Shown here in pieces: positions 22,241-40,128 of a stretch of DNA of 64,000 nucleotides. The first letter of the stretch is position 1. Every line of letters begins with the position of its first letter. A program made the position numbers and the translations under genes. The notes beneath the pieces were generated by a model. The model was given only the letters and a program-made list of their open reading frames with translations, was not told where the DNA came from and made no database searches. Source of the stretch: a virus; IMG/VR virus record IMGVR_UViG_3300047472_000191, positions 32,001 through 96,000 of that record, one strand, 5' to 3'.

Positions 22241-22297
22241 GGCGAAAATTCCGAATGTTAGCATAAGCCGGACAGATGCATAGACTAGGGGAGCACC

Positions 22298-23854: not shown

Positions 23855-23938
23855 AAAACCGAACCCCGCCAGGAGCTGTGCTCAACTAGCGGGGTTCGAT
23901 CACCCAACCACCCAAAATGGATATTACTGGGAGGGTGT

Positions 23939-24568
23939 ATGTCGGAGCAAGCGCAGCAAATGGCCCAAAGCGAATCTTCACAACATGAGGCTGAGATTGC
24001 TGCCGTGGTTGCCATTTTGGTGGCCGGGCCTCCGCTCGTCACCGCGATACAGGCTATTTCAGCTGTGTTGAAAACTCCCAAAAAGCTCGCACTCGGTCTA
24101 CTCGCCCTCATCAAGTACAAACCCGGCAAAAAGACGAAGGCGACCGCAGCCGGACCCGTCGCAGCCGCCATAAAAAAGAACATGCGCTTCCGGGCCGCCT
24201 ATGTGATCAACGCTGTCCGGCGGCTCGCCGACGCCCCCGACCTTCCCGCAGCACTCGCCCGGGAAAAGCAGCTGTTTGCCGCTCACAAAGAAGCCGCCGC
24301 ACGCCGCACAGCCGCCGCGAAAGCCTCCGCCGACATGGCTGCAACCAGCAACAGCCGCACCCTGGGCTGGGGCGGAATTCTCGACGATCGCACCACCCCC
24401 GACTGCCGCTGGCTCATCGGGAAAAACTATTCCGTCGACAATCCGCCTGAAGGCCTGCACCCCGGAGGACGGCACCCGCGCTGCCGCTGCTACCCGACCC
24501 CGGCCTACCCTGGAAAACCCGTCGTCACGGAACTCCCCGCGCACCTCCGAGGAAATTCGCCGCTATAG
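23939..24568 (+). CDS. MuF-like minor head protein
   Basis: W...LDDRTTPDC..L.G, PG..HPRCRC. Confidence 0.82.
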   Translation: MSEQAQQMAQSESSQHEAEIAAVVAILVAGPPLVTAIQAISAVLKTPKKLALGLLALIKYKPGKKTKATAAGPVAAAIKKNMRFRAAYVINAVRRLADAPDLPAALAREKQLFAAHKEAAARRTAAAKASADMAATSNSRTLGWGGILDDRTTPDCRWLIGKNYSVDNPPEGLHPGGRHPRCRCYPTPAYPGKPVVTELPAHLRGNSPL

Positions 24569-24651
24569 GTACTAGCCTCCCAGATTGACGAATAAACAGG
24601 TAGTTTGGTATCCGGCATGCCAGCTGAAAACTCGCGCGAGGAGACCGAACC

Positions 24652-24975
24652 ATGGCCACAGCTTTAACCGTCATTTCCGCTTCCAATGGCGGTCTGACCA
24701 CCTTCCCGCCCGTCGCGGCGGACACCACGGGAAACACGTTCACGAACGACGGCCGCACCTGGCTGTTCATCGACGGCGGCGCCGCCGGTGGAACTCTCGT
24801 CGTGAAGTCGAACGTCATTCTCCCCACGGGCCTGGTCGTGCCGGACAAGACGTACACCATCGCCGCGACCACCACGTACCTGCTCGACCCGTCCGACTTC
24901 CCGTACGTCGTCACCGGCGACACGGTCAAGGTCACGGCGTCCGTCAACACCATCAAGCTCGCCGCGTTCCACTAA
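24652..24975 (+). CDS. small beta-rich virion-associated protein
   Basis: GAGGAG RBS; G.TF.NDG...L; head-cluster location. Confidence 0.7.
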   Translation: MATALTVISASNGGLTTFPPVAADTTGNTFTNDGRTWLFIDGGAAGGTLVVKSNVILPTGLVVPDKTYTIAATTTYLLDPSDFPYVVTGDTVKVTASVNTIKLAAFH

Positions 24976-25005
24976 ACCCGACGTAACCTTTCTGGAGCGC
25001 AGGAC

Positions 25006-26982
25006 ATGAGTGCAGAGACAGGGGCGTTAGCGACCACCCCGCATCCGTTAGGAAAACCGAACGGACCGGGGCTATTTCACGACAAGTCGTTGAGCCTGCC
25101 GCCGTACATCGAAAATATCGCGCATTCCCTCATGACTAAGCGCGGGATGGACAAGTCCAAGGCCATACAGACCGCAATTGGGGTCTGTCAGCGCTGGGCG
25201 GCCGGGGGCGGCGACGTCAAGCCTGAAGTACACGCTGCCGCACAGGCTGCTGTCGCTGCCTGGGAAGCCGCCAAGGCCAAGGCCCGCGCGACCCCCAACA
25301 AGGGCGACGTGAAGCTGTCCCAGCCGATGACCCTCCTGCGCTCCATCCTGGATGGCTCCAGTGCGGTGGAACTGGCTCAGATCGCGGCGGAGCCCACGGG
25401 TCAGCCGGTGAAGGCCAAGACCTCGAAGCAGCCCGCCAAGGCCCCCCAGAAGGGCCAGCAGCAGACCAAGCACCAGCTGCCGCCGGGGGCCGTCGGCTGG
25501 AAGCACAACTGGGTTCCCGTCGACAAGAACGGCAACGCGGTCGGTCCGTCGCAGAAGGACAAGTCTGCGTCAGAGATCAAGGACATGGCGGGCCACGACC
25601 AGGCCACCAAGGATGCGATCGCCTCGGCGTACCACAACAAGGCAGTGGCGGACGGCAAGAAGGCGGCCACCAAGGCGAAGTCGGCCAAGAAGGCTGCCGC
25701 TGCGGCTGCCAAGCGGGCTGCGAAGGCGAAGGCCGCTGCCGCCAAGAAGGCACTCCGGGCCAAGGTGGTTGCCGCCAAGAAGGCGGCGGTGGCCACCAAG
25801 AGGACCGCAGCTGCTGCTGCGAAGGCCAAGGCGGCGAAGGACAAGGCGCGTAAGCAGCTGGTCAGTCAGGCCACCAAGCAGGCTATTGCGGACAAGAAGG
25901 CGGGCCGGTCTCTGACGCCGTCTCAGCAGAGGCTGCTGGACGCGTACAACGGTCAGCAGGCCGCGACGCTGGACAACCTGCGCAACAACGTATCCCTGTC
26001 CCAGCCGATGCAGACTCTCCGCGCCGTGCTGGATGACCCGTCGGCAGTGGATCTGGCGGCCCCCGGCTCCCGGGGTTACATCTACACCCACAACTGGCAC
26101 CTGAAGGCGGGGGTGAACCTGCCGAACAGGGGACAGCTGCCGAAAAGCCACGGGAAGACCGTGGGTCACAAAGTTGTGGGGAAGGACTTTGCGTCTCCGG
26201 AGATCAACAAGGCCAAGGCGGCATTCGCCGCTGGTCACAAGGCCCCGAAGGTGAAGGCGACCGCCCCGAAGGTGCAGGGGGCCGCCCCAAAGGCGCCGGG
26301 AGCTGCCCCGCCTGACGGGAAGCCGTCCGAAATCCTCAAGTACACCGCCGCCAAGAAGGCTCACACGGCGGCCTATCACGCTGTCGGCAAGGCGCAGCAG
26401 GAGAACACCGTCAAGGCGCATGAGGCCGCCGTCAAGGCGCTTCTGGAGTCCCACCAGGCCAACTTGAAGGTGGGTCTGAACGGCGCGGCGAAATCCTCAC
26501 TGCAAGGGGCTCAGGTGCACGCGCAGAAGGCACTCTCTCTGGGTGGCAAGCCGACTGCCTCGACCCTGGACGCCCCGTTCACGCCGCATGAGGAAGTGCA
26601 GATTCAGACGGCGGTGCACAAGCTCAGCCAGATGTCAGACACCCAGTTCGCGGGACTGGCGAAGACCCACGGGAACGTCTCGAAGACCGCTACTCGCAAG
26701 GAGCGGATGCAGGCCGAGGCGGTACGACGTGCGGAGCAACTCCGGGTGGGGCTGGCTCCGACCAGTAACCCCGTGGCGCTGTCCCAGCCGGTGGAGCTGG
26801 GGGCGTCTGCGGAGTTCGGCGGGGACTCCGGCGGCCCGGTCCCCACGGTCAGTTCCCAGGACGGTCCCCGGGTCTCTGTAAACACTCTGATGGCCAACGT
26901 CCCGAAGCGCGTGCTCACCGATGCCGCGAAGAAGGCGCAGAAGAAGCGGCGCGGGGATGCCCGAAAGGGTGTCAAGAAGTGA
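25006..26982 (+). CDS. Ala/Lys-rich head-cluster protein (putative internal cargo/polyprotein)
   Basis: N-terminal LP.YI..IA..L...G...S.AI..A.....RWA.G domain; histone-like AK tract; repeated VxLSQP and xHNW motifs. Confidence 0.75.
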   Translation: MSAETGALATTPHPLGKPNGPGLFHDKSLSLPPYIENIAHSLMTKRGMDKSKAIQTAIGVCQRWAAGGGDVKPEVHAAAQAAVAAWEAAKAKARATPNKGDVKLSQPMTLLRSILDGSSAVELAQIAAEPTGQPVKAKTSKQPAKAPQKGQQQTKHQLPPGAVGWKHNWVPVDKNGNAVGPSQKDKSASEIKDMAGHDQATKDAIASAYHNKAVADGKKAATKAKSAKKAAAAAAKRAAKAKAAAAKKALRAKVVAAKKAAVATKRTAAAAAKAKAAKDKARKQLVSQATKQAIADKKAGRSLTPSQQRLLDAYNGQQAATLDNLRNNVSLSQPMQTLRAVLDDPSAVDLAAPGSRGYIYTHNWHLKAGVNLPNRGQLPKSHGKTVGHKVVGKDFASPEINKAKAAFAAGHKAPKVKATAPKVQGAAPKAPGAAPPDGKPSEILKYTAAKKAHTAAYHAVGKAQQENTVKAHEAAVKALLESHQANLKVGLNGAAKSSLQGAQVHAQKALSLGGKPTASTLDAPFTPHEEVQIQTAVHKLSQMSDTQFAGLAKTHGNVSKTATRKERMQAEAVRRAEQLRVGLAPTSNPVALSQPVELGASAEFGGDSGGPVPTVSSQDGPRVSVNTLMANVPKRVLTDAAKKAQKKRRGDARKGVKK

Positions 26983-27557
26983 CTCTAGCTGGGGTTTTCG
27001 CTACCATCATGAGTTATACTTATCTCATGATGGTGACGGATGCGCAGCGCGAGGAACGACTGTGGGCCCGGGTGGAACCCGACGGGATCTGCTGGCGGTG
27101 GACAGGAGACACCACCAAGTCGGGGTATGCCGTTGTGACTTGGAAGGGCAAGATCTGGCGGGTACACCGTCTGATCTGGGAAAAGCTAGTCGGCCCCTGC
27201 CCCGAAGGGCTGGAGCCGGATCACCTCTGCCGGGTGCGGCACTGCGTAAATCCCGACTGCATCGAGTGGGTGACGCCGGAGGAAAACAAACGGCGCATGC
27301 ACGTGGCACGCGGTACCCAGACTTGGAACGGTGCCAAGACGCACTGCCCCCAAGACCACGAGTACACACCTGAGAACACCGGTCGTGACAAGAAGAACCG
27401 GCGCTACTGCAAGACGTGCAACCGGGAGAAGGCCAACAAGCGCCGTATCTCTTGGACGTACGAGGAGTGGGAAGCCAAGAAGGCCAAGGACAGGGCGTAT
27501 TACTACGCCAAAGTTGCTGCGCGGGCAGATGAGATTGATAAGGCAGGTACGCCGTGA
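26979..27557 (+). CDS. HNH endonuclease
   Basis: CWRWTG...GY, VHR, DHLCRVRHCVNP..I..VT..EN, KTHCPQDH. Confidence 0.9.
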   Translation: MTLAGVFATIMSYTYLMMVTDAQREERLWARVEPDGICWRWTGDTTKSGYAVVTWKGKIWRVHRLIWEKLVGPCPEGLEPDHLCRVRHCVNPDCIEWVTPEENKRRMHVARGTQTWNGAKTHCPQDHEYTPENTGRDKKNRRYCKTCNREKANKRRISWTYEEWEAKKAKDRAYYYAKVAARADEIDKAGTP

Positions 27558-30500
27558 CACCCGATTACTCGCAGGAGTACGAGTTAGTGTTCGTGGAGGT
27601 GTTACCGCCGGGCTATACGGTAGTTGACCCCTCCGCGATCGACCCCTCCGCAATCGAGCTGTCAAACAACCCGGCCGGTGCGTTAGCATTCCGTTATAAG
27701 CACGGATGGCACTTAATAAACCCCCTGATCCCCTCCCGGGGACTCAGCGGCGGCGGTCTCGCCCGGCAGCACGGCCACCTCTCCGGCGGCTACACCACCG
27801 GCCACTTCCACAAGGGCGCGGACGGCAAGGTCCACTTCAAGGCCGCCAACCGGTACGCCGACAAGGCCGACTGGGAAAAGGAAGTCAAGGCCGGAGCTGC
27901 GGGCGTCGCCGCCAAGCAGGAAGCGGCAAAGGCTGCCGTCCAGAAGGCCGAGGACGCCACCAGCCTCACGGAGAAGCTGGCCGGGGAGAAGGCCCCCAAG
28001 GCGGCCCAGGCTGCGGCCCACGCGGCTGCCGCTGCGGCCCACCAGGACGCGGTCAAGCAGTTCCAGGCGATGGGGCAGGACGGTCTCAAGTCCGGGGTGC
28101 TGACGCATTCGGCCCACAGTGCGATCCACGCGTCCAAGGCGGACCAGCTGGGCTCGGCCGCCAAGGCGGAGAAGGCCCAGAAGCTGATCCAGCGCAAGGA
28201 GCTGGCAACCGGCCTGTCCAAGAAGGCCAACAACCTCAGCTTCTCGTCGCACGGGTCTACGGCGCTCCCGAAGGACAAGGCCGCGCTTCACCAGAAGGCT
28301 GCGGCGGCTCACACGGCCGCCCAGAAGGCCCACGAGCTGGCTGGGAACCCCAACACGGCCGAGACCCACGGAATGGCCGCTGCGAAGCACGAGACGCTCG
28401 CCGCGCACCAGCTGGAGAAGCACAAGCAGCTGGAGCACGGGGCCGGGGTCAAGTCGAACAAGGCTGTGACTGCCTCCAAGAGCGCCCACATCGCGGGCGA
28501 AGAGGGTGACTCCCTGCCCTCTCAGATCGCCGCGCACCAGCACGCTGCACAGGCCCACGGAGAGGCCTCCGCCGCGCACAACAGCCTCGGTAACATCAAG
28601 GCTGCGCAGGATCACCTGACCAGCAAGATGGCCCACAACGGTCACGCTGCCCAGCTGAAGGAGAAGCACGCCAAGCACGAGGCGGCGACGGCCGAGCACA
28701 ACCAGCTGAAGGGCGCCGCCAACGCGGCGTACCAGAAGGCCATCGGCATGCCTGAGGGCACGGTGTTCGAGAAGACCGCCAAGGCAGATGCCCTCAAGGA
28801 GGCGTCCGAGAAGACCGGCGCTGCCATACAGCACGGCGCGAAGCACGGCCTGCCCGACGATCAGCTGATAACGGCGAAGCACGAGCAGCTGACCGATTTC
28901 GCCAAGCAGTTGACGGGTGAGGTCGAGCAGGAGCACAAGGCCACGGCGAAGCTGAACCAGGCTGCGTTCGACGCCACCGACAAGGCCAAGGCGGCGTCCC
29001 TGGATGCCCAGGTCTCCGGCGCGCTCGCGGACCACTGGGCGGCTCACGACGCGCATCAGGCTGCTGCGGAAGCCGGTCAGGCGGCGGGCCACGGGGCGGA
29101 CATCCAGCAGTTCCACGCGAAGCAGAAGGAAGCCCACCTGGACAAGATCGCCAAGATCCAGGAAGAGCAGGACGCCGCCAAGAAGGCCGCTGCCGAGGCC
29201 AAGAAGGCTGCACAGCTCAAGGCGATCGACATGTCGGACGCCGCCAAAGCGGCCAGCCTCGACGCCGAGAACACGCCCCACGGCAAGACCCTGGTCGGCA
29301 AGCACCTGGACGCTGCCGCCGCGCACCTGGACGCCGCCGACGCGGCAAAGGACGCCAGTGGCGGGGCAAAGCTGGTCGAGCACCACACGGCCATGGCGAA
29401 AGAGCACACCGCAACGGCCAAGAAGGTCAGTGCGGACGTCTCGAAGGCCGACCAGACGGCCGGGGACCACTTCAACAAGGGCGACGACGCCGAAACCACC
29501 GGGGACCACAGCGCTGCGGTCCAGCACTACAAGAAGGCCGCCGAGGAAGCCGATAAGGCTGGGAACATCACGCTCAAGGCCAACGCCCTGCACTCCGTCG
29601 CCAACATCACGGGGACGAAAGAGGACCACAAGGCGGCCGGTAAGGCTGCACTGAAGGTCCAGATCGCGGAGAACAAGAAGGCCAAGCCCAGCGAGTTCAT
29701 CCAGAACAAGTACGAAAACATGGCGGAGGAGCACCTCGCTGCCATCGACGCGGGCAGCACCGCTCCGAAGGCCTCCGAGGCGCCCGCGCAGGCGGAGGGC
29801 AAGGTTCTCAAGCCGGTAGGCAAGTTGACCGGTACTGGCAAACAGCTCGGTTCCCACGCCAATGAGGTACTGGTCGACGAGGCCGGGAACCAGTGGCTGA
29901 AGAAGGCCGACGCCAAGGGGTATTCCCGGGTACTGGACCCGGCGCTCGCCTCCCTTCAGCGCAAGGTCGGCATCGAGACGCCTGTCTTCGTGAAGACGAA
30001 GGAGGGGCACCTCCAGGGCATGATCCCTGGTGCGGCGGACGCCTTCCCCGGTGGCAAATTCGACCCGGAGAAGCTGTCCCCTGAGGACGTCACCAAGATG
30101 CTCCAGCACCAGGTGCTGGATTTCGCGACGGGCAACCAGGACACCCACTCAGGGCAGTGGCTGCGTAACCCGGACGGGTCTCTCACGCAGATCGACCAGG
30201 CCCAGGCGTTCAAGTTCGGTGTCGGCAAGGGGTCGGGCGGCTACGGCAAGGGTGACCCGACGACTACGTACCCGCCGAACCACCCGGATACCGAGGTGTA
30301 TCCGAAGCTGTGGGCTGCCGCCCAGGCAGGCAAGATCGAAATCCCGGACCCCAGCGGGGACAACGAGTTCGCTAAGACGATCCAGGCGATTCAGGACATG
30401 CCGGACGAACAGTTCAAGGCACTGTTCAAGCCGTACGCCACACAGGTAGTCGCCAACGGCGGCAACCCGGGCGGGCACGCCACGGTGGACGAGTTCCTGA

Positions 30501-33382
30501 ACGCCATCACCGAGCACAAGAACAGCATCGGCAGCGACTTCCAGAAGCTGTACAACAAGCTCCCGGAGTCCTCGAAGATCAGTACTGCGGCGCCGGAGGC
30601 CCCCGAACCGCACGTACCTACAGGTGCAACGGCAGACACGAAGAAGAACGCGCTGGAAGCCATCCAGACGTACGCGGTGTCCGGGAACGGCCAGCCGCTG
30701 ACCCCGTGGATGACGCAGATGGCCAAGGAAGCCGGGCTGACCGACGCCGAAATCCACCAGGCGTTCAAGGACGGCCCGAAGGATATAGCGCTCCAGGAGG
30801 TCGCGAAGCAGGCCGCCAACGGCACCTTGCTGAACAGCGGCGCGATCACCAAGGCCAAGGACGCCGGTGCGAGCCTCAAGGAAATCCACGAGGTCATACA
30901 GGCCGCCAAGAATCCTGCCCCGGCCTCCGGCAACAGCGGACTGTCCAAGAAGGAGCAGGCCCTCAAGGCGCTCGCGGAGCACGAGCAGAGCGATGGAGAC
31001 ATCGCCAAGGGCGGCCAGCTGGAGAAGGCTGCTGTGGCGGCGGGGGCGTCTCAGCAGGAACTGGTGCAGGCGGCGCACCACCCCGAGACGTACCTGAAGT
31101 CCCTTGAGGGCAAAACGGGTTCCGCTGCTCCGGCGACGGCCCCGGAGCCGTCGGGTCTGTCCGCGAAGCAGGAGGCCTTGAAAAAGGTTGCCGAATTTTC
31201 GAGCAACCCGCCCGAGGACTGGACCGTGATGAAGTTCCAGGAAGTCCAGAAGGCAGCGAAAGCGGCAGGGGCTTCCCCCGCCGAGGTGCAGGAAGCTAAG
31301 TACACCCCGGAGAAGTTCCTCAAGAGTCTTCCGGCCGCCGCGCCGTCCGTCGCCGCTCCGTCGGCCCCTGCGGCAGTCGCCCCTGCGGCTCCCAGCGCCC
31401 CGGCAGGCCCGAAGGTCGACCCGTTCAAGCCGCAGGCCAAATGGACCAAGGGCGTTGCGGGACTCAAGATGCCGTCCGGCGAAACGCAGGAAACCGACGT
31501 CGTCGCCGGTCCGAAGGGGCTCGTCGTCCACAAGACGACCAATGGCCCCGGCTGGACCGTGTCCTCTTCCGACGGCCTCTCCCTGGGCAACAAGTTCAAG
31601 ACCCAGAAGGAAGCCAAGCTCGCCGCCGAGTGGATGGCGAAGAACCACGGCGCCACCGGGGCGATCACGCTCGACAACCACAAGGCGTGGGGGGCGTCTC
31701 ACCCGGAGGAGCTGACCAAGTTCAAGCAGGGGGTCGTCAACAGCCAGTGGAACAAGGACGCCCAGGCGACGCTGGACGCGCACAACGGCATGGCCCCTGC
31801 TGGAACTGCTGCTCCGGCCGCGATGACCGCTAAGGAGGACGCGCTCAAGAAGCTGGCAGAACACAACCTGCCGGAAAACGGCGACGACTGGGATTACGAC
31901 AAGAACGCGGACCTGAAGGACTCCGCATCTGCTGCGGGCGCCAGCCCGGCCGAGATCGCCTCTGCGGCAGGAAAGCCGAAGACGTACATCAAGTCCCTGG
32001 GGAACGCAGCTGCGGCGACGCCTGCGAGCCCCAGCACTCCGGGCCATGCCACGCTGCCGTCTACACCTGCGGGTCAGACGGGCTGGAAGAAGACGACGCA
32101 CCCCGTAACGGGCAATGCCGCCTACGTCCACCCGGAATCGGGTATCCACATCAGCAAGAAGCCGTACGGCACGATGTGGCAGCTGTCCACCCCGAGCGGG
32201 GCCGTGATCGGTGTCCAGTACTCGTTGAAGGATGCCAAGCACGCGGCGGCGCAGCTCACGAAGCCGTTCACGCCGGGCTACAGCAAGTACCAGGACGAGA
32301 TCAAGCTGAAGCAGGTCGCTTCCGCGTTCGGCAAGGACTCGAAGGCGTTCAAGGACGCAGAGACGGCGTTCAAGGACAAGCACGGAAGCGTGCCGGAGGT
32401 CCAGCCTGCGTCGGCGCCGAAGCCGTACACGCCGGGGTCCCCGCAGGCCGCTACGGTCAAGAAGCAGCCGCCGAACCCGGTCACGGATGCGTTCACGATC
32501 ACCGGCAGCCAGTCAAAGGACGCGCACAACCTCAAGGCGATCCTCGCGGCCAACGGACCGACCTCGCCGAAGTTCCTGAACGCCAAGGCGGAATGGGAGA
32601 AGAAGTACGGGAAGACCTTCGATCCGTCGTTCAAGTCGCCGTACGCCGCCACGGTTCATCCGGCGCATGCGGGCTTCACCCCGTCGAACCCGAAGTCTTA
32701 CACCACACAGGACTCCCAGGACCCGGCGGAGCTGGCGAAGGTGACCAAAATGCACTGGTCCCAGGACACCCTGGACCAGGGATTCCGGTCGGCTTCGATC
32801 ACCGCGTCTCTGAACGGGGACTGGAAGCCCAAGCACGAAGACACCGGCGACGGCAGCGGCCCGATGATCTACTCCGGGGGTTCCTACGACGCCATCAACA
32901 ACCAGTTGCGCGGTGACGCCCAGTCGGACCTGATGCCGATCGGCCCCACGGGCGGCGACTGGGACGACGTCATCGCACACGCGGACAAGCTGTTCGACGA
33001 GGTGCCCCCGCTGACGCAGAACGTTGTTCTGTCCCGCAAGGTCGGCTCGGACGGCGGGGCGTTCCCGAAGTCCCCGCCGCCGATGACGCCGGGCGCCGTG
33101 TTCACCGACCACGGCTATGTGTCCACGTCCAAGAGCCGGGATGTCTGGTCCGGTCCTGTGCAGATGGAGGTCCGGGTTCCCAAGGGCATGAAGGTGCTGG
33201 ACCTGAACCACACCACGGGCTCGAACCACCCCAGTGAGCTGGAGGTTCTGCTGCCGCGCGGTGTCCGCTACCGGGTCATCTCGGACGGTCCGGCCCTGCA
33301 CTATTCAGGCGCGGGGCAGCAGAACCGGCACATTGTGGTGGAAGTACTGCCGCCGCTCCCGAATGACAGCGCGATAAACTAG
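27554..33382 (+). CDS. giant multidomain virion-associated effector: helical A/H/K region, kinase-like domain, helical repeats, C-terminal VIP2-like ADP-ribosyltransferase
   Basis: DFATGNQDTHSGQW...IDQAQAF (HipA/PI3-4K-like); YSGGSY..INNQLR, LSR, FTDHGYVSTS, ELEVLLPRG (R-STS-ExE). Confidence 0.85.
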   Translation: MTPDYSQEYELVFVEVLPPGYTVVDPSAIDPSAIELSNNPAGALAFRYKHGWHLINPLIPSRGLSGGGLARQHGHLSGGYTTGHFHKGADGKVHFKAANRYADKADWEKEVKAGAAGVAAKQEAAKAAVQKAEDATSLTEKLAGEKAPKAAQAAAHAAAAAAHQDAVKQFQAMGQDGLKSGVLTHSAHSAIHASKADQLGSAAKAEKAQKLIQRKELATGLSKKANNLSFSSHGSTALPKDKAALHQKAAAAHTAAQKAHELAGNPNTAETHGMAAAKHETLAAHQLEKHKQLEHGAGVKSNKAVTASKSAHIAGEEGDSLPSQIAAHQHAAQAHGEASAAHNSLGNIKAAQDHLTSKMAHNGHAAQLKEKHAKHEAATAEHNQLKGAANAAYQKAIGMPEGTVFEKTAKADALKEASEKTGAAIQHGAKHGLPDDQLITAKHEQLTDFAKQLTGEVEQEHKATAKLNQAAFDATDKAKAASLDAQVSGALADHWAAHDAHQAAAEAGQAAGHGADIQQFHAKQKEAHLDKIAKIQEEQDAAKKAAAEAKKAAQLKAIDMSDAAKAASLDAENTPHGKTLVGKHLDAAAAHLDAADAAKDASGGAKLVEHHTAMAKEHTATAKKVSADVSKADQTAGDHFNKGDDAETTGDHSAAVQHYKKAAEEADKAGNITLKANALHSVANITGTKEDHKAAGKAALKVQIAENKKAKPSEFIQNKYENMAEEHLAAIDAGSTAPKASEAPAQAEGKVLKPVGKLTGTGKQLGSHANEVLVDEAGNQWLKKADAKGYSRVLDPALASLQRKVGIETPVFVKTKEGHLQGMIPGAADAFPGGKFDPEKLSPEDVTKMLQHQVLDFATGNQDTHSGQWLRNPDGSLTQIDQAQAFKFGVGKGSGGYGKGDPTTTYPPNHPDTEVYPKLWAAAQAGKIEIPDPSGDNEFAKTIQAIQDMPDEQFKALFKPYATQVVANGGNPGGHATVDEFLNAITEHKNSIGSDFQKLYNKLPESSKISTAAPEAPEPHVPTGATADTKKNALEAIQTYAVSGNGQPLTPWMTQMAKEAGLTDAEIHQAFKDGPKDIALQEVAKQAANGTLLNSGAITKAKDAGASLKEIHEVIQAAKNPAPASGNSGLSKKEQALKALAEHEQSDGDIAKGGQLEKAAVAAGASQQELVQAAHHPETYLKSLEGKTGSAAPATAPEPSGLSAKQEALKKVAEFSSNPPEDWTVMKFQEVQKAAKAAGASPAEVQEAKYTPEKFLKSLPAAAPSVAAPSAPAAVAPAAPSAPAGPKVDPFKPQAKWTKGVAGLKMPSGETQETDVVAGPKGLVVHKTTNGPGWTVSSSDGLSLGNKFKTQKEAKLAAEWMAKNHGATGAITLDNHKAWGASHPEELTKFKQGVVNSQWNKDAQATLDAHNGMAPAGTAAPAAMTAKEDALKKLAEHNLPENGDDWDYDKNADLKDSASAAGASPAEIASAAGKPKTYIKSLGNAAAATPASPSTPGHATLPSTPAGQTGWKKTTHPVTGNAAYVHPESGIHISKKPYGTMWQLSTPSGAVIGVQYSLKDAKHAAAQLTKPFTPGYSKYQDEIKLKQVASAFGKDSKAFKDAETAFKDKHGSVPEVQPASAPKPYTPGSPQAATVKKQPPNPVTDAFTITGSQSKDAHNLKAILAANGPTSPKFLNAKAEWEKKYGKTFDPSFKSPYAATVHPAHAGFTPSNPKSYTTQDSQDPAELAKVTKMHWSQDTLDQGFRSASITASLNGDWKPKHEDTGDGSGPMIYSGGSYDAINNQLRGDAQSDLMPIGPTGGDWDDVIAHADKLFDEVPPLTQNVVLSRKVGSDGGAFPKSPPPMTPGAVFTDHGYVSTSKSRDVWSGPVQMEVRVPKGMKVLDLNHTTGSNHPSELEVLLPRGVRYRVISDGPALHYSGAGQQNRHIVVEVLPPLPNDSAIN

Positions 33383-33402
33383 AACGGACGTTGGAGGACA
33401 CC

Positions 33403-33609
33403 ATGGCGAACGAGCCCTCGAAAGAGCCCACCCCGGACGGGTGGAAGGCCGGTGACCTTGTGTGGGAGGTTGCCCCGGATGAGGTGACGCCTGTCATGCA
33501 GGCGGAGCTGGAGGAGCATCTTGCGAATCAGCGCAAGGAAGCTCAGCGGGACTCCGTGACCGAGAAGGTGCGGGCGCAGATGGCGAAGCGTCGGCAGGCG
33601 GCCAGCTAG
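33403..33609 (+). CDS. small protein immediately downstream of the ART gene
   Basis: GGAGG RBS; GWKAGDLVW followed by a helix. Confidence 0.65.
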   Translation: MANEPSKEPTPDGWKAGDLVWEVAPDEVTPVMQAELEEHLANQRKEAQRDSVTEKVRAQMAKRRQAAS

Positions 33610-33737
33610 CCCGGATTCCGGCCGATACCCCGATTCCTTTTGGGAGTCGGGGTATCGGCATGCCTGGGGGTTGCACACCCCTCTAGCATGTGCTAGGGTA
33701 GATATATCGAAGGCAGGAACTACTCAAGGAGAACAGC

Positions 33738-33998
33738 ATGACTGTCAGCTTCCGGACCTGGGTCCTCAAGGAGGGCCAGAACCGGTTCAACCTGAAGATG
33801 CGCCAGCTGGCCGACCAGATCCTCCGGGACGCCTGCTCCCAGGGCAAGGGCAACAGCTATGAGCACCTCGTAGTGCACATGCTGAACGAGCACAACTGCT
33901 CGATGGAAGAGGCGGACCTGCTGTACTGGGCGGGCCTGGAGTGGGCCTCGGCTACAGGCCACAAGGGGCTCATCGAGCACCCCTACGAGCTGTCATGA
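33738..33998 (+). CDS. hypothetical protein with its own early-type promoter
   Basis: TTGCAC-N17-TAGGGTAGATA at 33671-33704; AAGGAG RBS. Confidence 0.7.
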   Translation: MTVSFRTWVLKEGQNRFNLKMRQLADQILRDACSQGKGNSYEHLVVHMLNEHNCSMEEADLLYWAGLEWASATGHKGLIEHPYELS

Positions 33999-34006
33999 CG
34001 GCCAAA

Positions 34007-34045
34007 ACGTAAGCCCCCTGGTCACATTGACCAGGGGGCTTACGT
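34007..34045. terminator. bidirectional terminator
   Basis: ACGTAAGCCCCCTGGTC / GACCAGGGGGCTTACGT. Confidence 0.8.
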
Positions 34046-34051
34046 ATGTGA

Positions 34052-35896
34052 TCAGCTGGCCCGGTTACGCAGGATCTCCACCTTGTCCCCGGTCAGCTGC
34101 CAGCCCTTCAACGACTTCCCGGTAGCCTTGTTCTTGATCACCTTCTCCTCGAACCCGGCAACCTTGGCCTGCGCCACGAACGCCGAAGCCGAATGCACAC
34201 GGTCCTCGATCTTGTTCCCCATGAAAGCCCTCCAGGCATCAGCCAGAGTGCGCGGGTGAATGAAAATCGCATCACCCTGCATGTCCTCGGTGCGGTAAAA
34301 CGCCGGGGCCGTCACGAACGACTTGCCCGAAATCTTGATCGGCTCAAACGCCGTCATCCCATGCCCGGCCCAGTCCCCGTACTCGTGCAGAGCCCACGGC
34401 AGCACGTCCGTGGTCAGGGCGTTGTCCCAGGAGTTCGCGTACTTCAGATCCTCCTGCACCCACGCCCACACCCGGCCGTAGGTGGCGCCCTTCTTGCCCC
34501 ACGCCTTCGGATCCCCCAGAAGGTGATCAATGAAGCAGGCCCCTGCGAGAAGGACCGCGTACTTGTCCCCGAGACGTCCCGGGCACGGCTTCGTCTCATC
34601 GATCAGAGCCTCGACGTCGTCCAGCCAGCGCAGGATCTCCGCCACGACCGTCCCCGCCATCGCAGCCATCCCGTGGGCGCCCGGGTACTTGCGCATCAGA
34701 GACGTCACGTCGGTCCACTGCGACAGATGCTCACGGCCCGGGACCTGCGACTTCCGGTTGGTCGGATCCGTCAGCTCCAGCAGGATGATCCGGTCCATCA
34801 GGGCCTTCTGGGACTTCAACCCCAGGTGCTCCCCGGTCAGCAGAATCGTTCCTGTCATGTGGGAGTGCTGTGACGCCTTGAACCCCGACTCGTGCGACCG
34901 CATCATCTTCGTGCCGTCCGACGTGGACAGCCGCAGCATCTCAAAAACCACCTTCGGCTCATCCAGGTCGTCTATGTGGACGAACCCCGACCGGGTGGAA
35001 GCGATCTTCTGCCGGACATCCGGCACCGTGCCCTGCGACGGACCCGACGTGTTGCCCGTGAGGATCTGCCGGAGCATCGACAGTGCACCCGTCGTCTTGC
35101 CCGACCCCGACGGGGCCTCCACAGCCATCACCGGGAAATGAGACGTGTGCTGGATGATCCCGGACTGGACCAGGGACATCACCATCCACGACGCTACAAC
35201 CGCCAGAGGCGTTTCGTCATGGAACGTCAGCACCTGGGACAGTACGTCCTTGACCTCGGCCAGGCCGTTCTTAGCCATCCCGTAGGCGAACGGGGCATCC
35301 CCCGACGTCGACAGCTGAGCAGACGGACGGTACGGGGCCGACAGATCAAACACCGTCTCCCCGGGCCTCAGGATGCCCTCGTGCGACACGAACACGTTCA
35401 AGTCGGGGTGGTACCCCAGCTGGTCCACGATCGTCGCCTCAGGCGGCTTCTGGGCGTTGATGTAGCGCAGCAGCCGGACACCCTGGGAGACACCGCCGCC
35501 AAGCGCACCGTCCGGGCACATCACCGAGACACCCGCCGACGTCAGCCACAACGTCAGCTTGCGCGGGTCAGACAGGGTCTTCTCATCCAGGATCCGGCGG
35601 AGTTCCTTCCCGTCCGCCTGACGCACGATCACGACATCCCACGCCCGGCGTTCCGTCGTGTCATCCGCGATGATCCCGAGTGCCTTGATGTCAAAGTTGC
35701 CGTACGGCTCTTCATCAAAGATGTACTTGCCCGGCTCCGTCGGATCCTTCGCACGCGTACGCACGTGGATCACGCCCTCCTGCGAGCAGAGCCAGCCCGT
35801 ATCAAGATCAGCATCCGTGACAAGGGTGGAAGCAGCAGGCGTGTCGGTTGCCTGCGGGGTGATAGGGGAGATAGTCTCAGACACAGAGAGATGCAC
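34052..35896 (-). CDS. P-loop replication helicase/initiator (primase-associated helicase type)
   Basis: Walker A EAPSGSGKTT, Walker B VHIDD, ILLTGE, arginine-finger ALMDR; adjacent to iteron-like repeats. Confidence 0.75.
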   Translation of the reverse strand: MHLSVSETISPITPQATDTPAASTLVTDADLDTGWLCSQEGVIHVRTRAKDPTEPGKYIFDEEPYGNFDIKALGIIADDTTERRAWDVVIVRQADGKELRRILDEKTLSDPRKLTLWLTSAGVSVMCPDGALGGGVSQGVRLLRYINAQKPPEATIVDQLGYHPDLNVFVSHEGILRPGETVFDLSAPYRPSAQLSTSGDAPFAYGMAKNGLAEVKDVLSQVLTFHDETPLAVVASWMVMSLVQSGIIQHTSHFPVMAVEAPSGSGKTTGALSMLRQILTGNTSGPSQGTVPDVRQKIASTRSGFVHIDDLDEPKVVFEMLRLSTSDGTKMMRSHESGFKASQHSHMTGTILLTGEHLGLKSQKALMDRIILLELTDPTNRKSQVPGREHLSQWTDVTSLMRKYPGAHGMAAMAGTVVAEILRWLDDVEALIDETKPCPGRLGDKYAVLLAGACFIDHLLGDPKAWGKKGATYGRVWAWVQEDLKYANSWDNALTTDVLPWALHEYGDWAGHGMTAFEPIKISGKSFVTAPAFYRTEDMQGDAIFIHPRTLADAWRAFMGNKIEDRVHSASAFVAQAKVAGFEEKVIKNKATGKSLKGWQLTGDKVEILRNRAS

Positions 35897-35984
35897 CTCT
35901 CGCTAGCACCCCCCGACCTGCGACCGGTCGGGGGGTTCTTTCATGTTGATGGTGCAGACCCTAACACGTCGATCACGGCTAACG

Positions 35985-36232
35985 GGTTACCCCCCGACAC
36001 GTAACCGCCCGGGTAACCTGACCCCGCATTCTTAGCTTGTCTAACGAGTTCAAGATCATCTTTTACCAAACGAATGGACGTTACTCCAAAGTTACTTCTA
36101 GAGTTACCTTTCAAACACCCCCTCTGACCTGCATGGTTACCTGGTTACCTCGTTACTTCCGTATGTGCCTATACGCGCATGCGCGCACATCACGCGCGAT
36201 GTGGCGCCCTCATATTTCTGGAACGGGTAACC
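35985..36232. repeat. GTTAC/GTAAC iteron-like cluster, putative replication origin
   Basis: About ten GTTAC(C/T) or GTAACC copies (35986, 36001, 36013, 36080, 36091, 36103, 36136, 36144, 36152, 36227) in AT-richer non-coding DNA upstream of the helicase. Confidence 0.65.
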
Positions 36233-36333
36233 GCGTCTCGGGGGCCTCGGGGAGCCTGCACGTGGATGGCTTCAAAGCGGCTGCAACGAACGCTGCGGGA
36301 GGTCTGCGGGGAAGCCTGCGACCAGAACGTAAG

Positions 36334-36373
36334 ATGGCCACCTACACCAGGTGCAACTGGTGTAGGTGGCCAT
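36334..36373. repeat. perfect 17-bp inverted repeat
   Basis: ATGGCCACCTACACCAG-GTGCAA-CTGGTGTAGGTGGCCAT. Confidence 0.85.
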
Positions 36374-36407
36374 TTGTGCCGCGAGACCATCAAAAAGAGG
36401 CTCTGTC

Positions 36408-36884
36408 ATGATACCTGCTGGCATCCAGGTGCTTGAGGACGGAACGATCATCGGGAAACGGGGTGTGCCCGTGCGCACGCATCCGGATACCCGGGGTTAT
36501 CACTACGTTCGCTTGTACATCGAAGGCCGCCGACAGCGACGGTTCGTCCACCCTCTCGTGTGTGAAGCCTTCCATGGTCCGAAGCCGTTCCCGGAAGCGC
36601 AGGTCAGGCACCTGAATGGCATCAAATCGGACAATCGGGCTAACAATCTCAAATGGGGGACCTCCGCAGAGAACGCTGCGGACAAAAAGGTGCATGGAAC
36701 TGCTTGGGACGTTGCCAGGGGAGAACAGCACTGCCGCGCCAAACTGACTGACCAGCAGGTCTTGAAAATCCGGGAGCGTTACGCCGCAGGCGACATCCTG
36801 ATGCGAGAACTGGCAGTCATGTACGGGGTGGGTGAAAGCAGGATCAGCACCATCGTCAACCGAAAAGGTTGGACCCACATCTGA
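36408..36884 (+). CDS. HNH endonuclease with C-terminal HTH
   Basis: GY..V.L, VH.LV.EAF.GP, VRHLNG.K.DNR..NL.WGT..EN; GE.H..AKLT. Confidence 0.9.
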   Translation: MIPAGIQVLEDGTIIGKRGVPVRTHPDTRGYHYVRLYIEGRRQRRFVHPLVCEAFHGPKPFPEAQVRHLNGIKSDNRANNLKWGTSAENAADKKVHGTAWDVARGEQHCRAKLTDQQVLKIRERYAAGDILMRELAVMYGVGESRISTIVNRKGWTHI

Positions 36885-36901
36885 AATAGCCCGCATTCCA
36901 C

Positions 36902-36951
36902 AGGCCCCCGTTAGCAGCCGTCCAGTGCTGTTACCGGGGGCCTTCCCTTTT
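36902..36951 (+). terminator. intrinsic terminator
   Basis: AGGCCCCCG...CGGGGGCCT followed by TCCCTTTT. Confidence 0.6.
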
Positions 36952-37036
36952 CATTCGACTGCTGCTAGGCAATACTAGGATCATTGGCTAGTATTAGGCG
37001 CAGTCACGATTTCATGGACAGAGCGAGGTAAAGAGG

Positions 37037-38665
37037 ATGGCGGAACGCGAATTGCTGTTATCCCCTCAGGATGACGGTGCCGCTGTCGAGCTGTCTTCTC
37101 GGGTGTACCGCAAGCGGATCCTTCCGAAGGCCACGATCCACTACCGTGGCCGCAAGATCACTTTCGATGACCAGTACCTGCACGACCTCGCCAACTCCTT
37201 CCAGCAGGGCGCCTACGATCAGGTGGCCTTCATGATGGCCCCGGACAACAACAGCCACACCCTGGACCCGGAGCGGTTCCGTGGTGAGATCAAGGATGTT
37301 GAGGTCGGTGACGATGGCCTGTACGGCATCTTCCAGGTCACCCCTGAGGCTGCCAAGGTGCTGGAGCAGAACCCGAAGTTAGGTGTTTCTGCGCGCATCC
37401 TCGAAAACTACTCGCGCTCGGATGGGAAGCAATTCCCCCGGGCGCTTCAACATGTCTTGGGGACCCTCGATCCGGTAATCCCCGGACTGGGTAGCTGGGA
37501 AGAGGTTGCCCTGTCCAACGGGATCGATCCGGGCAATGTGATTGACCTGTCTGAACTTTCCTACGAGGAGTTGGAGCCCGTGACCACACGCGCTGAAAAC
37601 CTACAGCAGGTGGCTGCGGCTACCGACATGACCGTGGAAGATCTCGAAGCGCTCGACATGACTGACGACGAGCTGGCGATTTTCGCGTCAGCGTTCGTCG
37701 ACACCGAGCCTGCGGCAGAGGCTGCGGCCGAATCCGCCGAGGATGACGAGCTGGTCGAAGAGCCCGGCGAGCAGGGCGATCTTTTCGCTGCGGCGGACGA
37801 GGCCACCGACGAGGCTCTCCCTTCCGAGGAGGAGATCGAAGCCGCTGTGGAGGCCCTCTCCGATGAGGAGCTGACCGCCCTGGCGGCCGAACTCGGCATC
37901 CCGGCCGACGAGGAGCTGGAAGCCGCCGAAGAGGCGGGCGAGGAAGAGGCCACGGCCGAGGTGGAGACCGCCGAAGAGGCCGAAGAGGTTGCTGAGCCCA
38001 CCGATGCCGAACTGGCGGAGCGCCTGGGCACTGGTGAGTTCGGCAGCGGCATCGACGAACCCGTTGAGGACCCGGACCTGGGTGACCTGACCGACGAGGC
38101 CCTGGCCGAGATGACGGAGATGTGGGAGACCGCTCACGCCGCCGACGACGCCACGGGCGCGGAGGAAGCTGCCGCTGTCGCCGCCGAAGCCGCCGAGACG
38201 GCTGAGACTGCTGTGGAGGCCACGGAGGTGGCTGCCGAAGCGGCTGAGACCGTTGCGGAAACCCCGCAGCTGGTCGGCGCCGGATCGGTTTCCCTGTCCA
38301 ACGAGGCCGCCCCCGAGGTTGTGGCCCTGTCCAACCAGGTGAGCACTCTTCAGCAGCAGCTCGCGGAGCAGCAGTTCGACACCCTCAAGCGGGAGTACGT
38401 CCGCCAGGGGGTTCCCTCGGCTCTGGTCGACCTGGCCCGTCCGGTCCTGGTCGCCGGTCGTGCCCTGGAGTTCTCCAACAGCGTGGGCGACACGGTGGAT
38501 CCGGCGGACATCGTCCGGCAGCTTCTGGACTCCGCCACCGGCTACATCGATCTGGCCCGCGAACGCGGTCACAGCTACTCGCCGGAAGCCGAGGACAAGG
38601 CGGCGATGGCAGCCGAAGAGGACAAGCGTCTCGCCTCCCTGTGGGGCGAGCAGTACGGCATCTGA
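37037..38665 (+). CDS. prohead protease (Mu gpI-like) fused to acidic scaffold
   Basis: N-terminal H...PE...G.I..V....DGLY, GVSARI, L.HV..T.DP.IPGL; long Glu/Ala-rich scaffold; precedes capsid genes. Confidence 0.8.
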   Translation: MAERELLLSPQDDGAAVELSSRVYRKRILPKATIHYRGRKITFDDQYLHDLANSFQQGAYDQVAFMMAPDNNSHTLDPERFRGEIKDVEVGDDGLYGIFQVTPEAAKVLEQNPKLGVSARILENYSRSDGKQFPRALQHVLGTLDPVIPGLGSWEEVALSNGIDPGNVIDLSELSYEELEPVTTRAENLQQVAAATDMTVEDLEALDMTDDELAIFASAFVDTEPAAEAAAESAEDDELVEEPGEQGDLFAAADEATDEALPSEEEIEAAVEALSDEELTALAAELGIPADEELEAAEEAGEEEATAEVETAEEAEEVAEPTDAELAERLGTGEFGSGIDEPVEDPDLGDLTDEALAEMTEMWETAHAADDATGAEEAAAVAAEAAETAETAVEATEVAAEAAETVAETPQLVGAGSVSLSNEAAPEVVALSNQVSTLQQQLAEQQFDTLKREYVRQGVPSALVDLARPVLVAGRALEFSNSVGDTVDPADIVRQLLDSATGYIDLARERGHSYSPEAEDKAAMAAEEDKRLASLWGEQYGI

Positions 38666-38704
38666 CCGGGGCTCCCGGCAGCAACTCTAGAAGGAGAGAA
38701 AACC

Positions 38705-39166: not shown

Positions 39167-39207
39167 TCCGTCCGAGTCTGAACAGATCTAGAAAGGACGA
39201 CTGAGAC

Positions 39208-40128
39208 ATGCCTCAGACCACTGTCGGAACCGTTTCTTCGAACGATGGCTTCCGCCTCACAGTCAACACGCTGCTCAAGCGGCCGACCGTCATCCGGGAG
39301 CGCATTCTCCGGCTGGCCGACCAGCAGTTCATCACCGACACGGTGTTACGCAAGGTGCAGGACGTTCCGTCCGGCGTCGTGCTGTACAACGAGTCGACTC
39401 CGCTGTACGCCAACGGCGGCCCGTCGGTCGTCGCGGAGGGCGGCGAGATTCCGCTGATCACGGCGAACCTCGGCATCGGCAAGGCGGCCCGTACCATCAA
39501 GCGCGCCTTCGGTATCGAGTTCACCGAGGAGATGCGTCGGCGCAACGACATGGACCGTGTCAACACGTCCATCGCGCAGGTCGTCAACTCCATGAAGGCC
39601 GCCTGGGAGGACGCGTTCCTCTCCGCCGCCATCGCGGGTCTCGCGTCGACCGCTTCGGGTACCGCGTGGGCGACCGCCACGGACGTCCGGTCCACTCTGG
39701 CGAACGCGATGCTGGCGATCCAGCTGGCCGACGCGGAGTCCACGGACCAGACTGGCGTGCAGAAGTTCGGGTTCGAGCCGGACACGCTGATTCTGCATCA
39801 CGCGCGTGCGATGGACCTGGCGCTCAACTCCGACATGAACAAGTACTTCACCGGTTCCGGCGCCCCGAACTCCGCGTACGCCGACAAGCTGACCCTCCCG
39901 GGCCTGCTGTTCGGTCAGTTCAAGGTCGTCAAGTCGTGGCGTGTCCCGACCAACTCGGCGATCCTCCTGGAGGCCGGGACGATCGGTGGCATCGCCGATG
40001 AGCGTGCGTTGGACGTGACGCCGCTGGAGCACAACAGCACCAACGAAACGTGGCGCTGCAACGTGGTCCGCCAGTCCGCGATCTTCCTGGATCAGCCTAA
40101 GGCGGGACGCGTCATAACGGGTATCTAG
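39208..40128 (+). CDS. major capsid protein (HK97 fold)
   Basis: VAEGGEIP, K.......TEEMRRRN, FEPDTL, DQPKA...ITGI; position. Confidence 0.88.
   Translation: MPQTTVGTVSSNDGFRLTVNTLLKRPTVIRERILRLADQQFITDTVLRKVQDVPSGVVLYNESTPLYANGGPSVVAEGGEIPLITANLGIGKAARTIKRAFGIEFTEEMRRRNDMDRVNTSIAQVVNSMKAAWEDAFLSAAIAGLASTASGTAWATATDVRSTLANAMLAIQLADAESTDQTGVQKFGFEPDTLILHHARAMDLALNSDMNKYFTGSGAPNSAYADKLTLPGLLFGQFKVVKSWRVPTNSAILLEAGTIGGIADERALDVTPLEHNSTNETWRCNVVRQSAIFLDQPKAGRVITGI

Follow-up and report, generated by a model that had tools for sequence, protein, structure and literature searches.

The window analysed here (the whole 64,000 nucleotide (nt) stretch at positions 32,001 to 96,000 of IMG/VR virus record IMGVR_UViG_3300047472_000191) carries a phage head module in which proteins of 542, 658 and 1942 amino acids (aa) contain a short motif, [VI].L[SA], and in the two latter proteins some of the motif copies are followed by a peptide of the form xH[GN]W. 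We read the 542-aa protein as a serine head-maturation protease fused to a scaffold, the motif as the site at which it cuts, and the peptide (the tag) as a docking label on pieces of capsid cargo, and we assign this reading as a whole a probability of about 0.55; the catalysis, cleavage, packaging, label role and injection are the parts of it that we infer. The finding is real and coherent. The virus record is 124,939 base pairs (bp) long with a G+C content of 64%, and was judged 97% complete. Its source is a soil actinophage of ~125 kb whose closest named relatives are Streptomyces phages of the Bogota/UNTPL group (~56-60% protein identity); a Megablast search of the region against named phages gave no matches. 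The three genes are as follows:

25006..26982, + strand, 658-aa basic predicted cargo polyprotein
27554..33382, + strand, 1942-aa predicted cargo protein with a C-terminal ADP-ribosyltransferase
37037..38665, + strand, 542-aa predicted protease-scaffold protein

In the proposed mechanism the acidic protease-scaffold protein (net charge -96) would co-assemble with the basic 658-aa cargo (+60) inside the procapsid. The protease would cut after the Leu or Phe of [VIL]-x-[LFM]-Ser/Ala/Gly, and this cutting would free the protease itself, chop the scaffold part into short pieces and split the cargo chain wherever two modules meet. A tag, built from an aromatic residue, x-[KRT]-H-[GN]-W and a hydrophobic residue, would remain on each large cargo piece, 6-55 residues from its new N-terminus. 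The tag could be a docking label by which a head component recognises, holds or positions the freed piece in the capsid; alternatively, it may line the piece up for ejection with the DNA.

The 542-aa protein, its fold and its motif

A homolog search with the 542-aa protein gave 523 matches at E <= 0.001, and no Pfam family is on record for any of the 120 listed. The protein itself matched nothing in Pfam or PHROG, its isolated domain was still without a Pfam match at E <= 5, and its relatives are annotated 'scaffolding protein' or 'hypothetical protein'. A structure model made with 30 homologs as input (mean predicted local distance difference test score, pLDDT, of 71) shows a beta-rich domain over residues 22-143 and a helical C-domain over residues 426-539, with a long acidic stretch of low confidence between them; residues 1-19 have pLDDT < 50 and the first strand starts at residue 22. 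When this model was compared with the PDB by Foldseek the best rows were all herpesvirus proteases, with T4 gp21 at a probability of 0.97, and the top 26 rows given by the VIA structure aligner were herpesvirus proteases or T4 gp21 (Z 5.4-7.9, with 111-131 residues aligned at a root-mean-square deviation of 3.5-4.8 Å, spanning model residues 12-168; T4 gp21, 5jbl, has Z 7.2). Among the predicted viral structures of BFVD there are 79 matches at E <= 0.001; many of these are named prohead protease, and the names HK97 family, 'prohead scaffold and peptidase' and Mu-like I also occur, as does one row named COG4388 (E 6.2e-5). Because the Z scores are under 8, this fold support is moderate. His74, Ser118 and His139 are invariant in 120/120 homologs and, judged from the alignment, are candidate catalytic residues of the predicted protease.

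The modelled fold and the invariant His, Ser and His support the view, taken in an earlier sequence-only reading of this DNA, that the 542-aa protein combines a head protease with a scaffold-like part. That reading had also called the protease 'Mu-I-type', which survives for the fold class and the Mu-like gene order (below) and fails by sequence: there is no Pfam match, and hhalign of a 30-sequence profile of the 542-aa family against Mu gpI gave a probability of 0.3%. Against three S78-bearing proteins hhalign gave 0.8%, and a profile search against solved chains returned just two irrelevant rows (E 0.03-0.07). The 542-aa family is a sequence family of its own with a layout like that of herpesvirus UL26 and Mu I/Z.

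Might a host protease or another phage protease do the cutting, and the 542-aa protein be a scaffold with a dead protease-like fold? The annotation of its relatives would agree with this, as would the fact that no sequence family marks the protein as a peptidase. Against it stand the His, Ser and His residues kept in every one of the 120 homologs, the Pfam and PHROG scans, which found no other protease gene in the head module, and the motif itself, which tracks the 542-type protein in three distant phage groups (below); we regard this alternative as very improbable.

The motif strings quoted in the sequence-only reading are all present in the translations; those in the 542-aa protein are AVELSS (residues 16-21), EVALSN (156-161), VIDLSE (168-173), SVSLSN (417-422) and VVALSN (428-433). 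There are 7 copies of the pattern [VI].L[SA] in this protein, where 1.10 are expected, and 6 in the 658-aa protein, where 0.96 are expected, and 0/1000 shuffles were as high in either case. The 1942-aa protein has 2 matches where 2.28 are expected, so only its N-terminal site is meaningful. The portal, MuF and 153-aa proteins of the head module have no matches and the capsid protein and terminase one each; the major capsid protein has no match to a narrower 5-residue site pattern and no tags. Among the phage's 209 likely open reading frames (ORFs), a result of 0/200 shuffles was reached only for the 542-aa and 658-aa proteins, and ORFs outside the region, taken over the whole 124,939-bp phage, hold 64 matches (52.6 expected). 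The motif is short and was defined after being seen, so these shuffle counts are not formal probabilities, and the case rests on conservation in relatives, which is stronger evidence. As a separate observation, a 1107-aa ORF outside the window (G000:C1:110647-113970) has 5 [VI].L[SA] matches versus 1.8 expected.

Conservation was scored with [VIL]x[LMF][SAGT] across 120 homologs. The domains and sites of the 542-aa protein are the following:

37085..37096, + strand, site VELS (residues 17-20), where the disordered leader gives way to the fold; kept in 115/120 homologs
37094..37516, + strand, predicted protease domain of assemblin/HK97-type fold (residues 20-160)
37505..37552, + strand, double site VALS (157-160) and IDLS (169-172), 'release'-like, where the protease domain ends; kept in 111/120 and 95/120
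37553..38287, + strand, acidic linker (residues 173-421), length varies among homologs
38288..38332, + strand, double site VSLS (418-421) and VALS (429-432), before the C-domain; residues 429-432 kept in 92/120
38333..38662, + strand, C-terminal scaffold-like domain, helical in the model
Residues 464-467, VDLA, inside the C-domain; kept in 108/120
Residues 477-480, LEFS, inside the C-domain; kept in 119/120
Residues 504-507, IDLA, inside the C-domain; kept in 112/120

The motif is kept at eight positions in the family, counting residues 418-421, whose column is poorly aligned and where xSLS-like strings occur in roughly 75/120 homologs. The claim that the motif marks domain boundaries was borne out, both here and at the borders of the cargo modules, by the model and the relatives: four of the five strings listed above lie in or beside low-confidence segments at domain borders of the model. 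The two sites of a pair are separated by 11-12 residues in the protease protein, by 19 in the cargo and by ~28 around the transferase leader. The acidic linker accounts for a net charge of -79. A nested scaffold start was also sought within the 542-aa gene, where Glu codons mimic ribosome-binding sites.

Cargo chains and predicted cutting

The 658-aa protein has no Pfam or PHROG matches, a result that includes its isolated pieces at E <= 5. It is rich in long Ala/Lys runs, and its net charge of +60 and the -96 of the protease-scaffold protein are opposite extremes; such charge pairing could help to co-load the cargo. Its motif copies are VKLS 102, VELA 121, VSLS 329, VDLA 348 and VALS 590, and the pieces predicted from them are residues 1-104, 105-123, 124-331, 332-350, 351-592 and 593-658. 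The features of the two cargo proteins are as follows:

25006..25317, + strand, cargo N-domain (residues 1-104 of the 658-aa protein)
25309..25377, + strand, junction 1, double site VKLS...VELA with a 19-aa spacer; kept in relatives
25990..26058, + strand, junction 2, double site VSLS...VDLA with a 19-aa spacer
26773..26784, + strand, site VALS, ahead of the basic C-terminal tail of 66 aa and followed by no tag
27653..27664, + strand, site IELS (residues 34-37 of the 1942-aa protein); LDFS or LDLA in relatives
32870..33283, + strand, ADP-ribosyltransferase domain (residues 1773-1910 of the 1942-aa protein), Pfam ADPrib_exo_Tox PF03496, E 1.9e-11, 44.1 bits against a cut-off of 23.4

The 1942-aa protein consists of a 37-aa leader that ends in the IELS site, a tag module, a long Ala/Lys/His-rich region and the C-terminal ADP-ribosyltransferase, a predicted enzyme whose R, STS and ELE motifs can be read directly in the translation. 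The sequence-only reading had the protein begin with DPSAIDPSAIELSN; this string is present, at residues 25-38, and so is preceded by 24 residues rather than standing at the very start. By eye, residues ~770-1000 (29860-30560), with the strings GNQDTHSGQW and IDQAQAF, look kinase-like; residues ~770-900 gave no matches in Pfam and none among PDB sequences. Beyond this stretch there are 3-4 repeats of a ~60-aa unit that ends ...Y[IL]KSL.

The 658-aa and 1942-aa proteins are one unit, a single gene in Streptomyces phage Bogota that is split here. Bogota gp9 is one 1186-aa gene, annotated 'ADP-ribosyltransferase', that spans the chain from N-domain through transferase; it has GWKHGWIPV near residue 135 and AFRYKHGWILINP near residue 392, and the 1942-aa protein is homologous to its residues 385-1186. 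The chain is split into an upstream gene and a transferase gene in 9/9 IMG/VR relatives that have the junction in the locus, and in these the GTG start of the transferase gene overlaps the TGA stop of the upstream gene (GTGA). In the typical upstream protein the 104-aa N-domain and the 19-aa spacer are followed by a basic piece (~205 aa) and a ~56-aa tail. The extra length of the 658-aa protein comes in at junction 2, which opens an extra module that relatives of ~390 aa do not have, so that a second basic module sits between two junction copies. At the GTGA overlap the window and only two of the nine IMG/VR relatives (L006 and L008) have an HNH endonuclease gene, which re-forms the GTGA overlap on both its sides and looks like a homing insertion at the gene joint; the upstream protein is 639 aa long in L006 and L008 and ~390 aa in the relatives that lack the HNH gene. 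Chains with several effector domains are found in this head module: here there is the ADP-ribosyltransferase, and relatives add a second ADP-ribosyltransferase, a 2H/LigT domain or an ATLF-like zincin.

What argues that the motif copies in these chains are cut? Across the cargo family there are 149 motif matches versus 61.5 expected, in 64 proteins, and inserted enzymes are bracketed by the motif. For example, an extra ADP-ribosyltransferase in L006, L008 and P0156 lies between TVKLAN or DVKLSH and E/PV.LSQPM (TVKLAN and EVTLSQPM in L006 and P0156). The sharpest evidence for the site reading comes from comparison of N-domain starts. There are 29 stand-alone N-domain proteins that start M-S-A/E-x-T at a fixed distance from a GPGLF anchor, and in 6/6 internal or extended N-domains outside the S78-type class a hydrophobic-x-Leu/Met stands directly before SA[QK]T (for example AIEL|SAQT, PLEL|SAKT, AVDL|SAQT, ALEM|SAQT and IAAL|SAKT). 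The stand-alone start M-SAET aligns with the L|SAxT of the internal copies; because stand-alone starts match internal site ends in this way, the predicted cut falls between Leu and Ser. In the split ADP-ribosyltransferase genes the upstream site position now reads V..LP and the fused forms retain V.L[SA][NQ], which would be decay of the site where it is unneeded.

In the sequences compared, the motif also travels with the 542-type protease across three distant phage groups. In Microbacterium phage Magritte gp19, a 542-type 'scaffolding protein', there are 7 matches (0.63 expected), and a 1991-aa Magritte cargo protein has a leader and then an ILELA site at its start. The 542-type protein of Microcystis phage Mwe-JY05 has 4 matches (0.62 expected; 2/500 shuffles as high), in the same gene order and with VELA sites in the cargo and in a MuF-like protein. 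Four other proteins, P0181, P0186 and P0187 (N-domain plus an HK97-type S78 protease) and P0183, have no sites and no tags, a contrast that is weak because only about 2.5 sites are expected in them in total.

An alternative is that the motif is never cut and marks linkers, recombination joints or a strand-forming contact in chains that act intact. Modules have been inserted between duplicated junction sequences, three motif copies in the 542-aa family lie inside helices, and polyvalent phage proteins can be packaged unprocessed, with the N4 virion RNA polymerase as an example (PMC5512222). On the other side, junctions 1 and 2 of the window share only 50/84 nt, with 5 synonymous codon changes among the differences, so that it is the peptide on which selection acts; in the protease-fold protein, whose modules are not swapped, the motif copies keep their positions; the residue right after the motif is exactly where the stand-alone proteins begin; and similar sites are described for herpesvirus proteins of the same fold class (PMC4498786). 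We consider an uncut motif rather improbable, and think that it is probably the cleavage site of the 542-aa protease, as far as the sequences and the model can tell.

The xH[GN]W tag

The three xH[GN]W peptides that the sequence-only reading had placed after these sites were all found where it put them (nt 25495, 26074 and 27689):

25495..25515, + strand, tag copy 1, GWKHNWV, of the short 'GWKH[GN]W.PV' kind
26074..26100, + strand, tag copy 2, YIYTHNWHL, 10 residues after the VDLA site
27689..27715, + strand, tag copy 3, FRYKHGWHL, the core of a ~60-aa module

The string H[GN]W occurs twice in the 658-aa protein, where 0.02 occurrences are expected. A profile of the ~60-aa FRYKHGW module was run over 1.84 billion cluster representatives at E <= 0.001 and gave 33 clusters, of which 28 are true. 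The last five (P0150-P0154) were dropped, as FG-GAP-repeat proteins with a look-alike N.FRYK.GWNL string; because these last clusters are unrelated, the module is confined to this phage group. A word-index search for shorter tagged proteins gave 2 matches. The sequence-only reading had proposed that a profile of the tag be used to list the domains attached to it in other phages, and the profile showed that different enzymes follow the tag. Twenty-two true members entered a Pfam scan (P0121, P0122 and P0125-P0128 were left out), and 19 of these end in an ADP-ribosyltransferase; 3/19 also match LigT/2H phosphoesterase, one just under the cut-off. Among the other scanned members, an ATLF-type zincin occurs in P0146; P0138 and P0148 have no Pfam match, and a zincin-like HExxH string can be read directly in P0138. 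Both the motif and the tag are conserved in relatives, in which an ADP-ribosyltransferase, a 2H phosphoesterase or a zincin-like peptidase follows the tag.

Alignment of the 28 copies of the module shows G42, H50, W52, R62 and G63 to be invariant; H43 and H54 were also kept in a first alignment of 8 sequences. Folded alone, the module has a mean pLDDT of 55, with values < 50 over residues 42-69, which fits a linear motif that needs a partner, and by this model the tag is probably a conserved, disordered linear motif. Its partner would presumably be some head component, as candidate reader of the label. Tags occur only in lineages with the 542-type protease, and their distance from the site upstream depends on their type: 9-17 residues in 33/33 FRYKHGW-type tags, 6-7 residues in 4/4 HQWKH.W-type tags and 27-55 residues in 29/30 GWKH.W.PV-type tags. 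Two further regular-expression matches look like chance or are odd (P0122, residue 491; P0176, residue 350, 46 residues from a site). When the chains were cut at the sites in silico and pieces of 60 aa or more were counted, 63 pieces had exactly one tag and 5 had two. In P0184 the string AIELVGPKGY.HGW is repeated three times.

The tight spacing suggests a different role, in which the tag is a docking site (exosite) for the protease and sets the site a fixed distance upstream in the active cleft. The 33/33 and 4/4 counts above, the predicted disorder of the tag on its own and its restriction to lineages with the 542-type protease would all fit an exosite. However, at least eight conserved sites of the protease family lack a tag, as does the final site in the 658-aa protein, the GWKH-type tags lie 27-55 residues away, and a site-plus-tag cassette that recombined as one unit would hold its spacing without any mechanistic link. 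We think an exosite doubtful.

A second alternative accepts the cutting and denies that the tag is the loading signal. The N-domain would then load the chain, the leader would do so in the split genes, and the tag would bind metal or DNA or be the part that leads the fragment into the portal channel on ejection; this arrangement, including those other roles of the tag, is possible, though we hold it to be unlikely. It is favoured by the company that the N-domain keeps. Of its 36 homologs, 3/36 (from other phages) carry Peptidase_S78, a head protease, and in P0169 an N-domain cargo start is joined to a 542-type protease in one chain, which may be an assembly or deletion product. (The homologs, 361-1152 aa long, have Phage_Mu_F on record in 0/36 cases, and an Atlas look-up of the N-domain gave no named family at score >= 0.9.) The conserved histidines of the tag module, the fact that the tag remains on the fragment after the predicted cut, and a leader, Y-E-L-x-F-V-x-x-L-P, kept in stand-alone ADP-ribosyltransferase proteins can be counted on the same side. 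Against it, the 1942-aa protein has no N-domain and so would require a signal of its own, and the leader position in fused forms looks like a decayed site and not a conserved signal.

Several facts weigh against the reading of protease, site and docking label that we prefer. The profile methods link the 542-aa protein to neither S78, Mu gpI nor any solved chain, no Foldseek PDB row for its model reaches E <= 0.001, the VIA match is middling, and the His74 loop is poorly modelled (pLDDT < 50 over residues 65-77). The motif is short and post hoc, its three conserved copies within C-domain helices may be structural, and the relatives share kinship, so conservation counts are not counts of independent events. 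With respect to the tag, 53 of the in-silico pieces of 60 aa or more have none (some of these are spurious cuts inside folded domains; N-domain pieces have 0 tags in 31/33), and since the protease's own sites and the last 658-aa site are not followed by one, the tag is not needed for the role of the site. The N-domain, which other phages fuse to head proteases, and the leader of the 1942-aa protein are at least equally good candidates for the loading signal. A literature search (supplements not covered) found no report on cleavage, packaging or injection for any family member, no paper on the 542-type protease family and no virion proteomics of these Streptomyces phages; one unrelated match came from a search for the tag strings, and the available part of the literature on Ma-LMM01 contained no N-terminal data.

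In some relatives the slot of the tag holds other peptides. Headers of the form HPR...GG.F or NPDEPR.PDGKW stand right after the site in 10 cases in 9 proteins, and NPDEPR.PDGKW follows the VKL[AS] site directly in the extra ADP-ribosyltransferase of L006 (L006:3534-5450), L008, P0156 and P0185. A VELA or LELA site is followed by RYVRT..GA..YG.PIG in the cargo of both Magritte and Mwe-JY05, and in Mwe-JY05 also in the MuF-like protein; this second header kind is common to phages of different host phyla. We tentatively suggest that xH[GN]W may be a local form of a 'header', an exchangeable label placed after head-protease cut sites, a generalisation that we would not call likely.

Known systems and the surrounding head module

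In T4, capsid-targeting leaders on the internal proteins and Alt precede a Leu/Ile-x-Glu site and are removed by the gp21 prohead protease. The present system resembles T4 in having a head protease of the same fold (gp21), an ADP-ribosyltransferase as (putatively packaged) cargo and one short site in both scaffold and cargo. It differs in the site, which is [VIL]-x-[LFM] followed by Ser, Ala or Gly in place of Leu/Ile-x-Glu, in the conserved peptide after the site, in the multi-module cargo chain and in the fusion of protease to scaffold. The sequence-only reading had likened the tag to the T4 leader, and this part of it does not stand: the 1942-aa protein does have a 37-aa leader that ends in a site, yet the conserved tag lies after the site, the opposite order, and would stay on the mature piece, so it is not a T4-type leader. 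With Mu gpI/gpZ (AF083977) the system shares its gene order and the presence of protease and scaffold in one gene; unlike Mu gpI it has no Pfam Mu-like match and next to no hhalign probability (above), and a cargo chain stands between its MuF and protease genes.

In layout the 542-aa protein parallels herpesvirus UL26, in which a protease is likewise fused to a scaffold; UL26 has a Ser-His-His triad, a release site (YLQA-T) after the protease and a maturation site (VQA-S), and cutting at the latter detaches the scaffold from the capsid protein (PMC4498786). UL26/UL26.5 and the 542-aa protein share the protease fold class, an N-terminal protease with a C-terminal scaffold part, sites at the end of the protease domain and before the capsid-binding end, a site of the form hydrophobic-x-small/aliphatic then Ser or Thr, and an invariant Ser with two His. 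They have no sequence similarity, Leu or Phe replaces Ala before the predicted cut, the 542-type and cargo sites are paired 11-28 residues apart, the motif also punctuates enzyme cargo, and the host is bacterial. In giant phages (SPN3US gp245) the prohead protease cuts many head proteins, ejected ones included, at a short motif, according to the portions available of PMC7411985, PMC10052503 and PMC5694885; the phage group and the motif are different here, and a tag after the site is not described in those portions.

Polyvalent proteins and MuF-linked effectors have been described (PMC5512222, PMC5576092), and for the former the accessible text proposes processing by an embedded metallopeptidase (PMC5512222). 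The present cargo is like these in having multi-domain effectors beside the portal and MuF genes, among them ADP-ribosyltransferase and 2H phosphoesterase, with predicted delivery with the DNA; unlike the MuF-fused toxins in the same texts, it goes with a separate 209-aa MuF protein, and its module borders carry the site shared with the head protease. On our reading the 542-type system is an instance of head-protease-processed capsid cargo, an already known kind; its site is assemblin-like, and the order of site and then header is unusual.

Head-carried, injected proteins are known for only a few model phages. If the reading of protease, site and docking label is true, a shared site and a retained label would make capsid cargo predictable from sequence in many uncultured soil actinophages, cargo that includes ADP-ribosyltransferases, RNA-end phosphoesterases and peptidases. 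If, further, one conserved head component reads the headers, a portable code in two parts, the cut site and the header that is kept, would be common to tailed phages; it would specify the proteins that stay in the capsid and reach the host, and cargo could then be predicted from sequence alone. A large head-protease family, with 523 homologs and no name in current profile libraries, is also defined here, and the idea can be tested directly in cultured relatives such as Streptomyces phages of the Bogota group.

The remaining genes of the head module are:

20537-22240, terminase
22298..23854, + strand, Mu-type portal protein, Pfam Portal_Mu E 4.5e-39
23939..24568, + strand, MuF-like minor head protein of 209 aa with no cargo fusion, Pfam Phage_Mu_F E 9.7e-9, 36.4 bits against a cut-off of 29.6
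24652-24975, 107-aa ORF between the MuF and cargo genes, third-position G+C (GC3) 0.88, strong codon bias
26979..27557, + strand, HNH endonuclease, Pfam HNH_3 E 1.9e-13
33379-36900, inserted island that interrupts the head module
Between the 542-aa protein gene and the major capsid protein gene, a 153-aa protein
39208..40128, + strand, major capsid protein, Pfam Phage_capsid_4, phrog_1650

The Mu-like order of portal, MuF, protease-scaffold and capsid protein is present here (Pfam matches, with Mu record AF083977 compared), and MuF and cargo are encoded by separate genes in the window. The island at 33379-36900 holds a reverse-strand gene for a 614-aa protein similar to phrog_5177 (DNA polymerase/primase, E 3e-102) and a second HNH endonuclease (36366-36884); Bogota likewise has reverse-strand genes at the island position. 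Rare TTA codons are concentrated near the 5' ends of the late genes (20537-40128), at codon 16 of the terminase, 6 of the portal, 5 of the 107-aa ORF, 8 and 15 of the 658-aa protein, 11, 17, 44 and 54 of the 1942-aa protein, 8 of the 542-aa protein and 47 of the capsid protein.

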